This document shows, one piece after another, positions 5,231-7,800 of a stretch of DNA of 64,000 bases (position 1 is the first letter of the stretch; each line of letters opens with the position of its first letter). Source of the stretch: a virus; the IMG/VR virus record IMGVR_UViG_3300049215_000686, positions 64,001 to 128,000 of that record, one strand, 5' to 3'. The notes beneath the pieces were generated by a model. The model was given only the letters and a program-made list of their open reading frames with translations. It was not told where the DNA came from and searched no databases. A program made the translations under genes and the position numbers.

Positions 5231-5280
5231 GTCTTATCCCTTATAGGTAATAAACTGGCTTTATAACCTATGGGTAATAA

Positions 5281-6368: not shown

Positions 6369-6443
6369 TGGCTCCAGGGGCAGGTTACGCTCCTGCATAT
6401 GACGCGTTAACAGCGCGTTCCTTTACTAGTCAGGCACCCTGGA
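6369..6443 (-). tRNA. tRNA-Asn(GTT) with non-canonical T-loop
   Basis: ACGCG-CTGTTAA-CGCGT; TCCAGGG acceptor; G73; T-loop AGCGTAA. Confidence 0.82.
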
Positions 6444-6906: not shown

Positions 6907-6949
6907 AAAAAACGAAAACCCCGCTCAATCTTTTACGACTGGCGGGGTT
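6907..6949 (-). terminator. attenuator 2 intrinsic terminator
   Basis: AACCCCGC-CAGTC-GTAAAA-GATTG-A-GCGGGGTT followed by TTCGTTTTTT. Confidence 0.88.
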
Positions 6950-6976
6950 CTTAGAATCTTTTTTGTTTAAACAAAC

Positions 6977-7057
6977 TTACAAGAAAGATTTCACCCCGCG
7001 AGCCACCCAATTGGTCGCATTATTTTTAAAGTTATAGGCGAAATAATTCTTGTTCAT
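6977..7057 (-). CDS. Asn/Lys/Tyr/Phe/Ala/Trp-rich leader peptide MNKNYFAYNFKNNATNWVARGVKSFL
   Basis: ATG..TAA, 26 aa; 15 of residues 2-17 are N/K/Y/F/A/W; GCGGGGT in the 3' part is complementary to the terminator 5' arm. Confidence 0.85.
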   Translation of the reverse strand: MNKNYFAYNFKNNATNWVARGVKSFL

Positions 7058-7066
7058 ATATTTACT

Positions 7067-7093
7067 ATTATACCTTTTTTTGCTAGATCGCAA
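7067..7093 (-). promoter_or_regulatory. promoter for leader 2
   Basis: TTGCGA...GG-TATAAT, 9 nt before the leader ATG (15-nt spacer, so the -35 is uncertain); no SD. Confidence 0.55.
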
Positions 7094-7101
7094 CTTTATT
7101 T

Positions 7102-7371
7102 TCACTTTTTTACAGCAGGTGACGGACTCGGAGCGGGAGCCGGCGACGCATTGGAAGCAACGGGCTTACTCCAGCAAACTTCTCCGCCCTTTGAAAGGTA
7201 ACAAATCACCTCAGTCGTTTCGCACCGAGAAAAACCAACCTTTTTATCTAACTGCAAACAAAACTTTCCCTGGATTACGGGCTTTTCTTCTTTCTTTGAT
7301 TCTTTTGCAAAGGCCAGCGAAGAAACCAACATCATTAAAAAAATCCATTTTCGCATAATGTTCTCTCTCAT
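7102..7371 (-). CDS. small secreted protein
   Basis: Signal peptide MRKWIFLMMLVSSLAFA; Cys-containing core; Pro-rich tail. Confidence 0.6.
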   Translation of the reverse strand: MRENIMRKWIFLMMLVSSLAFAKESKKEEKPVIQGKFCLQLDKKVGFSRCETTEVICYLSKGGEVCWSKPVASNASPAPAPSPSPAVKK

Positions 7372-7379
7372 TCTAAAAA

Positions 7380-7800
7380 TGGTGGAGGTGGGCGGAATTG
7401 AACCGCCGTCCAGAATCTTTCAGTCACCAAGTCATTCACACGCATATCTGGTTTTACGATCCAGCAATCAGGGTACGACCCGTTTTACCGAGTCTCCACC
7501 ACTTGGTTTATGTCCAAGAACAGGAGAGGCGTTTCCGCGTCCACCAGCCGCCAGTTTAACGTCTCGACGACCCGACGTTTTTGCCTTTCTTCTGTTTCTC
7601 GGCTCAGGCAGCCTCATTGTTTCCTAACCTAGGTCAGGCTACAAGGCGGAGATCAGCCTTACGGCTGAAATCCACGCGAACGACGTTGTCATTAGCATTT
7701 GTTGTTTGCATCTTTGTTTCCGGGGAATCCCCAAGGCAGCCTCATGCTCTGCCTGCGCGCACTCAATTTCCTCGTTATCCTGTCGAAACCTGTCACCCCC
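7380..7800 (-). ncRNA. ssrA: tmRNA; tag ANDNVVRVDFSRKADLRLVA (7634-7696)
   Basis: 5' GGGGGTGACAGGTTTCGAC; 3' GACGGCGGTTCAATTCCGCCCACCTCCACCA with G3:U70; ANDN resume motif; LVA end. Confidence 0.95.

Follow-up and report, generated by a model that had tools for sequence, protein, structure and literature searches.

The leader-peptide attenuators of enterobacteria, such as thrL (Thr, Ile), the ilvGMEDA leader (Ile, Val, Leu), trpL, hisL, pheL and leuL, combine a promoter with a short ORF enriched in regulatory codons, an intrinsic terminator, and an antiterminator competing for the 5' arm of the terminator, and it is the position of the ribosome that decides between the two structures. The units described here, found in front of the tRNA genes of a phage, show the same layout, with a promoter that is putative and a role of the ribosome that is predicted by simulation. 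However, the enterobacterial attenuators control biosynthetic enzymes, whereas the phage units would control tRNAs. In addition, the mRNA of the phage units is probably leaderless, the last codons of the ORF include segment 2, as the upstream strand of the antiterminator is called here, there is no clear 1:2 protector or pause hairpin, and the untranslated leader is predicted to read through.

In the pheST operon of E. coli, the Phe codons of the pheM leader attenuate an aminoacyl-tRNA synthetase gene. As proposed for the phage units, pheM is a leader-peptide attenuator that adapts part of the decoding apparatus to how much charged tRNA is available, but it is monovalent, it controls a synthetase and not tRNA genes, and it is cellular and not viral. 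The T-box riboswitches of Firmicutes (RF00230) likewise sense tRNA supply through a terminator/antiterminator switch in the 5' leader, but they bind uncharged tRNA directly and are untranslated. Membership of the T-box family was considered and rejected, because no RF00230 match at E <= 1 was present in the first 12 kb of the window (i.e. the whole stretch of 64,000 nucleotides analysed in this work), at the locus of the third unit of this phage, or in its relatives. The only leader-type match in Rfam was a sub-threshold one to rnk (25.8 bits against a gathering threshold of 55, E = 0.46). Full-text literature searches returned no description of leader-peptide control of tRNA genes. A Phe-rich leader of E. 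coli pheV/pheU was evaluated as a possible precedent and discarded: upstream of pheV there is only a promoter-like stretch, and the paper on pheL is silent on such a leader.

The Att2 unit and its putative tRNA operon

The window belongs to one virus record of 157,131 bp (45% GC) from an uncultured phage, which encodes a tmRNA and no fewer than 19 tRNAs besides a major capsid protein, a DnaB-like helicase and HNH endonucleases. All three tRNA blocks of this phage are preceded by a unit of the same type, each matching its own tRNAs; these units are referred to as Att1, Att2 and Att3.

Att2 is located on the minus strand (window 7072-6907) and is composed, in this order, of a TATAAT box, 9 nt, an ORF, 25 nt, a hairpin and a T-run. 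The putative -10 box (TATAAT, 7072-7067) is preceded by AAAAAAAGG. The leader ORF (7057-6977) runs from an ATG at 7057-7055 through 26 sense codons to a TAA at 6979-6977, and its codons 18-22 contain segment 2 (7005-6992, core GCGGGGUG). The intrinsic terminator (6951-6907) is a 15-pair hairpin with one bulge (6951-6915; -23.1 kcal/mol) followed by UUUUCGUUUUUU, with the T-run at 6914-6907. The stretch GCGGGGT(G) at 6999-6992, in the last codons of the ORF, has the letters of the 3' arm of the terminator and is complementary to the 5' arm. A simple sigma-70 scan gave no match to a -35 element at Att2; it must be added that the simple sigma-70/terminator scan also failed to list the Att2 box and the Att2 terminator. 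The attenuator architecture of Att2 is confirmed, far beyond what chance would produce. An earlier note on this DNA had read the locus as a leader-peptide attenuator, and this reading is supported: the features of such an attenuator that could be tested at the sequence level turned out to be present, the promoter being putative, while the function itself is inferred.

A TATAAT-type box was found in all of the eight units identified so far, i.e. the three of this phage and five from two related phages (G001 and G005, see below). In six of the eight, the ATG follows the box by exactly 6 nt, the exceptions being Att2, with 9 nt, and unit D of G005, which has a 21-nt purine-rich leader. In every case, the ATG opens a frame of 16-26 codons that ends in a stop. 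Considering that no Shine-Dalgarno sequence precedes the ATG of Att2, and that the usual spacing between box and ATG, 6 nt, is what a transcript beginning at or beside the AUG would be expected to show, the mRNA is probably leaderless. Leaderless translation of the leaders is plausible, but it remains an inference, and in the absence of a Shine-Dalgarno sequence it is this inference on which translation of the leader depends. Genome-wide, 15 of the 27 sites combining such a box with an ATG open ORFs of at least 50 codons, compared with 25% of all ATGs. The motif AAAAAGGTATAATA, followed after 6 nt by an ATG, also stands outside the window, at contig C1 13,470-13,365 and 156,977, in front of ordinary genes (for example a 34-aa membrane peptide and a 91-codon ORF), which suggests a class of leaderless phage transcripts.

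Two features were noticed upstream of Att2. A GTG at window 7102-7105 (minus strand) overlaps the TGA of the upstream gene, which encodes an 89-aa lipoprotein-like product, in the form GTGA, and is in frame with the Att2 leader, of which it would give a 42-aa version; on transcripts that read through from the upstream gene, ribosomes finishing that gene could therefore gain access to the leader as well. The phage also encodes a tmRNA (Rfam, 87 bits), which is located at window 7380-7800 (minus strand), just upstream of the putatively gated tRNA blocks, and is kept in three relatives with differing tag peptides (L004 17069-17478, L050 10353-10710 and L005 2943-3309). There may be a functional link between this ribosome-rescue tmRNA and the adjacent leaders, if these sense stalling.

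Past the Att2 terminator, and on the same strand, an HNH endonuclease gene (6831-6430; Pfam PF01844, E = 2e-4) precedes tRNA-Asn (GTT, 6443-6369), which was identified by Rfam (RF00005, 45.7 bits) and by ARAGORN at a relaxed threshold only; the last codons of the HNH ORF overlap the 5' end of the tRNA gene (window 6430-6443). These genes are followed by tRNA-Lys (CTT) and tRNA-Lys (TTT) at 6315-6162, by three small ORFs of 66, 90 and 75 aa at 6104-5508, in which no Pfam family was found, by tRNA-Tyr (GTA), tRNA-Ala (TGC) and tRNA-Phe (GAA) at 5530-5281, and by a divergent tRNA-Trp (CCA) at 5230-5160, all on the minus strand. The two Lys tRNAs and the Tyr, Ala and Phe tRNAs are standard calls supported by Rfam. 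Since tRNA-Trp was found by relaxed ARAGORN alone, its call is probable rather than certain; Rfam did not identify it at E <= 1. The leader had been described as standing upstream of seven tRNAs. It does so, on the same strand, but not directly, because the HNH gene intervenes before tRNA-Asn, and the three small ORFs intervene between the Lys and Tyr tRNAs. In both G001 and G005, the terminator directly adjoins tRNA-Asn and the HNH gene is absent from that position; the HNH gene of the present phage therefore looks like a later insertion, and resembles a homing-endonuclease insertion at the junction between attenuator and tRNA.

No further TATAAT-type box is present on the coding strand from 6440 to 4964 (i.e. 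from tRNA-Asn to the Att1 box), and a simple scan revealed no convincing terminator between tRNA-Asn and the Att1 box, which is consistent with a single transcript from about 7060 to 5160. Just past the Att2 terminator, a TATATA box is found at 6890-6885, which could be a bypass promoter driving the operon independently; this represents the main local uncertainty. The box is contained in an imperfect inverted repeat, ATCGGTAT ... ATATGCCGAT (window 6903-6875, minus strand), which directly follows the T-run of Att2; an internal promoter, an operator and an endonuclease site are all conceivable functions. A second repeat, an imperfect direct one of 14-15 nt (TTATTACCCATAGG / TTATTACCTATAAGG, window 5236-5280, minus strand), lies between tRNA-Phe and the Trp-like tRNA.

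Codon content of the leaders and tRNA content of the blocks

After the initial Met, the Att2 leader contains six Asn, three Lys, three Phe, three Ala, two Tyr and one Trp, so that 18 of its 25 residues correspond to the tRNAs of its block (binomial P = 3e-6, with a background of 0.267 from the long ORFs of the phage). Among the 885 ATG ORFs of 20-40 codons present in the six frames of the whole genome, it ranks first for this amino acid set, and the other two frames of the same DNA score 4/25 and 3/25. The composition reported for residues 2-17 was reproduced, with 15 of 16 residues being Asn, Lys, Tyr, Phe, Ala or Trp, as was the presence of both Lys codons, AAG and AAA. Ile and Leu, which are equally AT-rich, are missing from residues 2-17, and base composition is therefore no explanation of the match.

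The Att1 unit (4964-4809, minus strand) has a TATTAT box at 4964-4959, a 25-codon ORF at 4952-4875, whose codons 21-23 provide segment 2 (CCUGGGGUG), and a terminator at 4848-4809. The tRNAs for Asp, Gly (TCC), Gly (GCC), Thr (CGT), Thr (TGT) and Thr (GGT), located at 4808-4248 on the minus strand, begin 1 nt past its T-run. Six Thr, four Gly and two Asp account for 12 of the 24 residues of this leader. Every Thr codon and both codons for Asp occur in it, together with GGA, GGT and GGG for Gly, and it is again first among the 885 small ORFs, in this case for Asp, Gly and Thr. The Att3 unit is outside the window (contig 156,014-155,860, with a 25-codon ORF at 156,002-155,925), ahead of tRNAs for Arg (TCT), Met, Ile and Val, and its leader contains three residues each of Met, Arg, Ile and Val (12/24). 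When the three leaders of this genome are tabulated against the three tRNA sets, the diagonal of the 3 x 3 table reads 12, 18 and 12, and the off-diagonal values are 2-5. A lone tRNA-Met elsewhere in the genome has a TATATT box 6 nt upstream of the tRNA and no leader, indicating that the putative gating belongs to the blocks and not to every tRNA.

The Att3 block also contains two tRNA-like remnants without an ARAGORN or Rfam call (contig C1, about 155,040-155,125 and 155,205-155,266). In one of them, an acceptor stem and a T-arm can be made out, together with what looks like an ACG (Arg) anticodon; the latter would fit the CGT/CGC codons of the leader.

The relatives G001 and G005 are IMG/VR fragments retrieved by a capsid search, their capsids being respectively 76% and 72% identical to that of the present phage (G000). 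Three units were found in G001, namely unit A, before Asn, Tyr and Trp-like tRNAs (leader with six Asn, two Tyr and one Trp, 9/21); unit B, before a Gly-like tRNA (called by eye only), Ala, Ser (TGA), Ser (GCT), two Pro and Phe tRNAs (five Ser, four Gly, four Ala, two Pro and two Phe, 17/24); and unit C, of 16 codons (L008, about 3040-2915, minus strand), before Leu (TAA), Leu (TAG) and Gln tRNAs (five Leu and two Gln, 7/15). In G005, unit D precedes Asn, Tyr, Lys, Trp, Gly and Ala tRNAs (five Asn, three Ala, three Gly, two Lys, one Tyr and one Trp, 15/24), and unit E precedes Ser and Pro tRNAs at the end of a contig (ten Ser and three Pro, 13/23).

Each of the eight units of the three genomes is enriched for its own set, with P values from 1.6e-3 to 5.5e-7 and a Fisher combined P of 1e-23. 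The true pairing of leaders and blocks is the best of the 40,320 permutations of eight leaders over eight sets, and the best of the 72 possible within genomes. The match is not perfect. When wobble is applied strictly, several units score lower by codons than by amino acids (9 compared with 12 for Att3, 7 compared with 13 for unit E). Some leader residues also lack a matching tRNA in the block, examples being the five Ser residues of Att3, the five Val of unit B and the four Ala of unit A.

The comparison of the orthologous, Asn-led units is informative about what is conserved. Those of G000 and G005 have promoter letters in common, whereas the leader peptides of the Asn-led units are just 20-40% identical. 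The block of unit A is without Lys and Phe tRNAs, and its leader has one Lys and no Phe, compared with three of each in Att2; the block of unit D has gained a Gly tRNA, and its leader carries three Gly. Because the leaders differ in step with the tRNAs while peptide identity stays low, selection acts on codon content and not on the peptide. Unit C of G001 has the shared promoter, but no recognisable intrinsic terminator was found before tRNA-Leu, and it may be a decayed or a differently working unit.

G001 also encodes, at L008 1725-1803 (minus strand), a tRNA whose anticodon, CTA, is that of an amber suppressor (Rfam, 63.8 bits); this tRNA has no leader unit and directly follows an ORF resembling, by eye, a peptidyl-tRNA hydrolase. 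This tRNA may serve TAG read-through or recoding.

Searches for additional examples covered several collections. There are no close cultured relatives among 50,697 phage records, where a blastn search with the region matched tRNAs only. The capsid is about 30% identical to those of SPO1-like phages and of Myxococcus phage Mx1. The latter, which has 29 tRNAs, was considered as a ready model and rejected, as a crude hairpin-plus-T-run scan showed no terminator just upstream of its blocks. Promoter-pattern scans of IMG/VR returned nothing beyond the already known relatives, and a capsid-profile scan of IMG/VR yielded eight loci, with tRNA blocks only in G001 and G005 and a lone tRNA-Arg without leader in G002. 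The same profile found 19 loci in metagenome contigs, none with a tRNA block within 10 kb, and no matches in species genomes. Finally, a nadM-Nudix-like gene (named from its sequence) flanks a unit in both G001 and G005, and the 80 IMG/VR loci around its homologues contained 34 tRNAs and no terminator-leader unit.

Alternative pairings of the leader RNA

The duplex between segment 2 and the 5' arm of the Att2 terminator has a calculated energy of -19.3 kcal/mol, which was reached by only one of 500 dinucleotide shuffles. The pairing of GCGGGGT with the 5' arm, suggested in the earlier note, is thereby borne out, its letters being identical to those of the 3' arm. The extended antiterminator is the minimum-energy fold of Att2 when the 3' arm is omitted, and it includes the AAUCUUU/AAAGAUU helix and an inner UUGU/ACAA helix, both of which had been anticipated, the inner one as TTTGT/ACAAA.

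Seven of the eight units carry, within the final eight codons of the ORF, a near duplicate of the 3' arm that pairs with the 5' arm. The duplex energies in these seven units range from -13.4 to -19.3 kcal/mol, and were reached by 0, 0, 1, 5, 11, 12 and 25 of 500 shuffles (-17.0 kcal/mol and 11 of 500 for Att1). Seven of the eight units have terminators with hairpins of -17 to -23 kcal/mol and canonical T-runs. Whole-leader folds were far more stable than those of shuffles, with z values of -6.0 for Att2 and -3.8 for Att1, a third value being -4.8. The letters of segment 2 vary by unit (GCGGGGU, CCUGGGGU, CGGGGGU, CCAUGAGGU, AGGGGUG, GGGUCAGGGU), but the three strands of each unit change in concert and the pairing is kept. 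Judged from the sequences, changed letters with preserved mutual compatibility are the pattern expected of an antiterminator/terminator pair under selection. Architecture, codon match, alternative pairings and co-variation in the relatives can all be read from the DNA itself.

The effect of a translating ribosome was simulated by keeping unpaired the A-site codon together with the 15 nt upstream and the 13 nt downstream of it, on an RNA ending just before the 3' arm. With the A site at codons 2 to about 16, the 5' arm was predicted to be sequestered with a probability of 0.5-0.97, and sequestration fell to 0.04-0.5 when the ribosome covered the last codons, the switch being at about codon 16-18. 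In Att2, the drop falls between Asn16 and Trp17. In the simulated leader, segment 2 is already masked when the ribosome waits at Trp codon 17, and the response to Trp is therefore probably weak. The leader has a single TGG, which is too near the switch to carry much weight. The breadth claimed for the leader, beyond that of thr and ilvGMEDA, is retained as five to six amino acids compared with two or three.

When the full terminator was included in equilibrium folding, it won at any ribosome position in four of seven units, and only unit A of G001 switched fully. As most units show no equilibrium switch, the decision must be kinetic, as it is in the classical attenuators, and the argument has to rely on the co-transcriptional simulation. 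In the co-transcriptional ensemble without ribosome, the antiterminator dominates in six of the seven units, i.e. the untranslated leader is predicted to read through. This suggests a logic in which complete translation switches the operon off, different from that of the 1:2 protector of the trp type. A robust 1:2 protector or pause hairpin is absent, although a 1:2-like pairing is seen in the full-length minimum-energy fold of Att2; the 1:2 protector, however, defines the trp subtype and not the class of attenuators.

Possible mechanism, alternative explanations and meaning

We regard it as likely, although short of certain, that Att2 is a ribosome-mediated leader-peptide transcription attenuator gating a phage tRNA operon, one of three in this genome. 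The phage would then probably make each tRNA set only while ribosomes read the matching codons slowly. The function is inferred, and so are the promoter, leaderless translation, the efficiency of termination and the response to tRNA supply.

In the proposed mechanism, transcription would start a few bases past the TATAAT box, placing the AUG at or near the 5' end of the RNA, and a ribosome would read the 26-codon frame as RNA polymerase advances. If reading is fast, segment 2 (codons 18-22) would be covered by the ribosome at the time when the 5' arm is made, leaving that arm to pair with the 3' arm, and transcription would stop at the T-run (6914-6907). If charged tRNA is scarce, the ribosome would wait at codons 2-16 (Asn, Lys, Tyr, Phe, Ala), leaving segment 2 free to take the 5' arm; no terminator would form, and polymerase would continue through the HNH gene and the seven tRNA genes. 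The fresh tRNAs would lift the stall, which amounts to negative feedback. Amino acid starvation would also trip the switch, a condition in which extra tRNA gives no help.

Among the alternatives, one is a general gate on translation status, where readthrough would occur whenever overall translation is slow or absent, as might follow host shut-off or a defence aimed at ribosomes, and the codon bias would add little set-specific control. The predicted preference for the antiterminator without ribosome (six of seven units) speaks in its favour, because any loss of translation should then open all three operons. As a full account we consider it unlikely, since it leaves unexplained why each leader uses the amino acids of its own block, and why leader composition tracks tRNA content across phages; moreover, it is compatible with the attenuator as an added mode of action and does not replace it.

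It is also conceivable, but in our opinion decidedly unlikely, that the unit is a constitutive 5' leader. The hairpin would be a weak terminator, a pause site or a processing/stability element, the ORF would encode a micro-protein or be a by-product, and the tRNAs would be made regardless, perhaps from the TATATA box. The possible internal -10 box (TATATA, 6890-6885), the HNH gene separating leader and tRNAs, the related unit without terminator (unit C) and the lone tRNA-Met with a promoter and no leader would all fit. However, strong hairpins (-17 to -23 kcal/mol) with canonical T-runs, an antiterminator pairing that survives changed letters, and a codon match with a combined P of 1e-23 speak against such an element, as do leader peptides that are not conserved in sequence.

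A third alternative is that tRNAs are sensed by the RNA itself without translation, with leader triplets binding anticodons in a T-box-like manner and stabilising the antiterminator. The missing Shine-Dalgarno sequence before the ATG is in line with this, and a direct contact between tRNA and RNA is conceivable where the regulated genes are themselves tRNAs. Nevertheless, ATG, open frame of 16-26 codons and stop are kept in all eight units, the match is confined to one frame, up to 16 triplets for six amino acids would need to be read, no T-box or other leader family exceeds the Rfam threshold, and the 6-nt spacing from box to ATG suits leaderless translation; untranslated sensing is, on balance, very improbable. 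Finally, an ordinary terminator of the upstream lipoprotein gene (7371-7102), which does need one, coupled by chance to a spurious ORF in an AT-rich spacer favouring Asn, Lys, Tyr and Phe codons, can hardly be entertained, given the first rank of the Att2 ORF among 885 small ORFs, the lack in residues 2-17 of Ile and Leu with their likewise AT-rich codons, sister units that are GC-richer and of other compositions (Thr/Gly/Asp, Arg/Met/Ile/Val), and five more units in the relatives.

If the units are leader-peptide attenuators, the question arises of what makes tRNAs scarce during infection. In the parts of the literature accessible to us, phage tRNAs are proposed or shown to replace host tRNAs cleaved during infection (PMC10264068; PMC11464382, for T5 tRNA-Lys against PARIS); the same parts of these two papers describe the tRNAs, but no regulation or gating element. 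The leading species of the Att2 block, Asn, Lys and Tyr, bear a likeness to such countermeasures against tRNA cleavage, and tRNA-cleaving defences are a plausible trigger of the units. A further step, which we put forward only tentatively and which may well prove wrong, is to regard the units as sensors of tRNA depletion evolved in the phage-host arms race, where the loss of particular host tRNAs (through host anticodon nucleases or phage-induced host shut-off) would stall ribosomes at precisely the affected leader codons and open only the matching block, which its own products would close again. If this were true, they would be the first known ribosome-mediated attenuators of tRNA genes, and would provide an on-demand, set-specific and self-limiting supply.

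The co-variation observed over three phages makes the attenuator hypothesis testable with a small reporter. If it is correct, the units would provide synthetic biology with a compact natural means of sensing tRNA availability, and would be a new sequence signature by which phage tRNA operons can be annotated. Classical attenuation would also be carried over to viruses and to RNA genes, with five or six amino acids sensed together. For fifty years there has been debate over the reasons for which large phages carry tRNA genes, and over the control of these genes (PMC10264068). If the attenuator reading holds, the phage would gauge decoding speed codon by codon and supply tRNAs on demand, which would favour the replacement of missing tRNAs over a simple compensation of codon usage.
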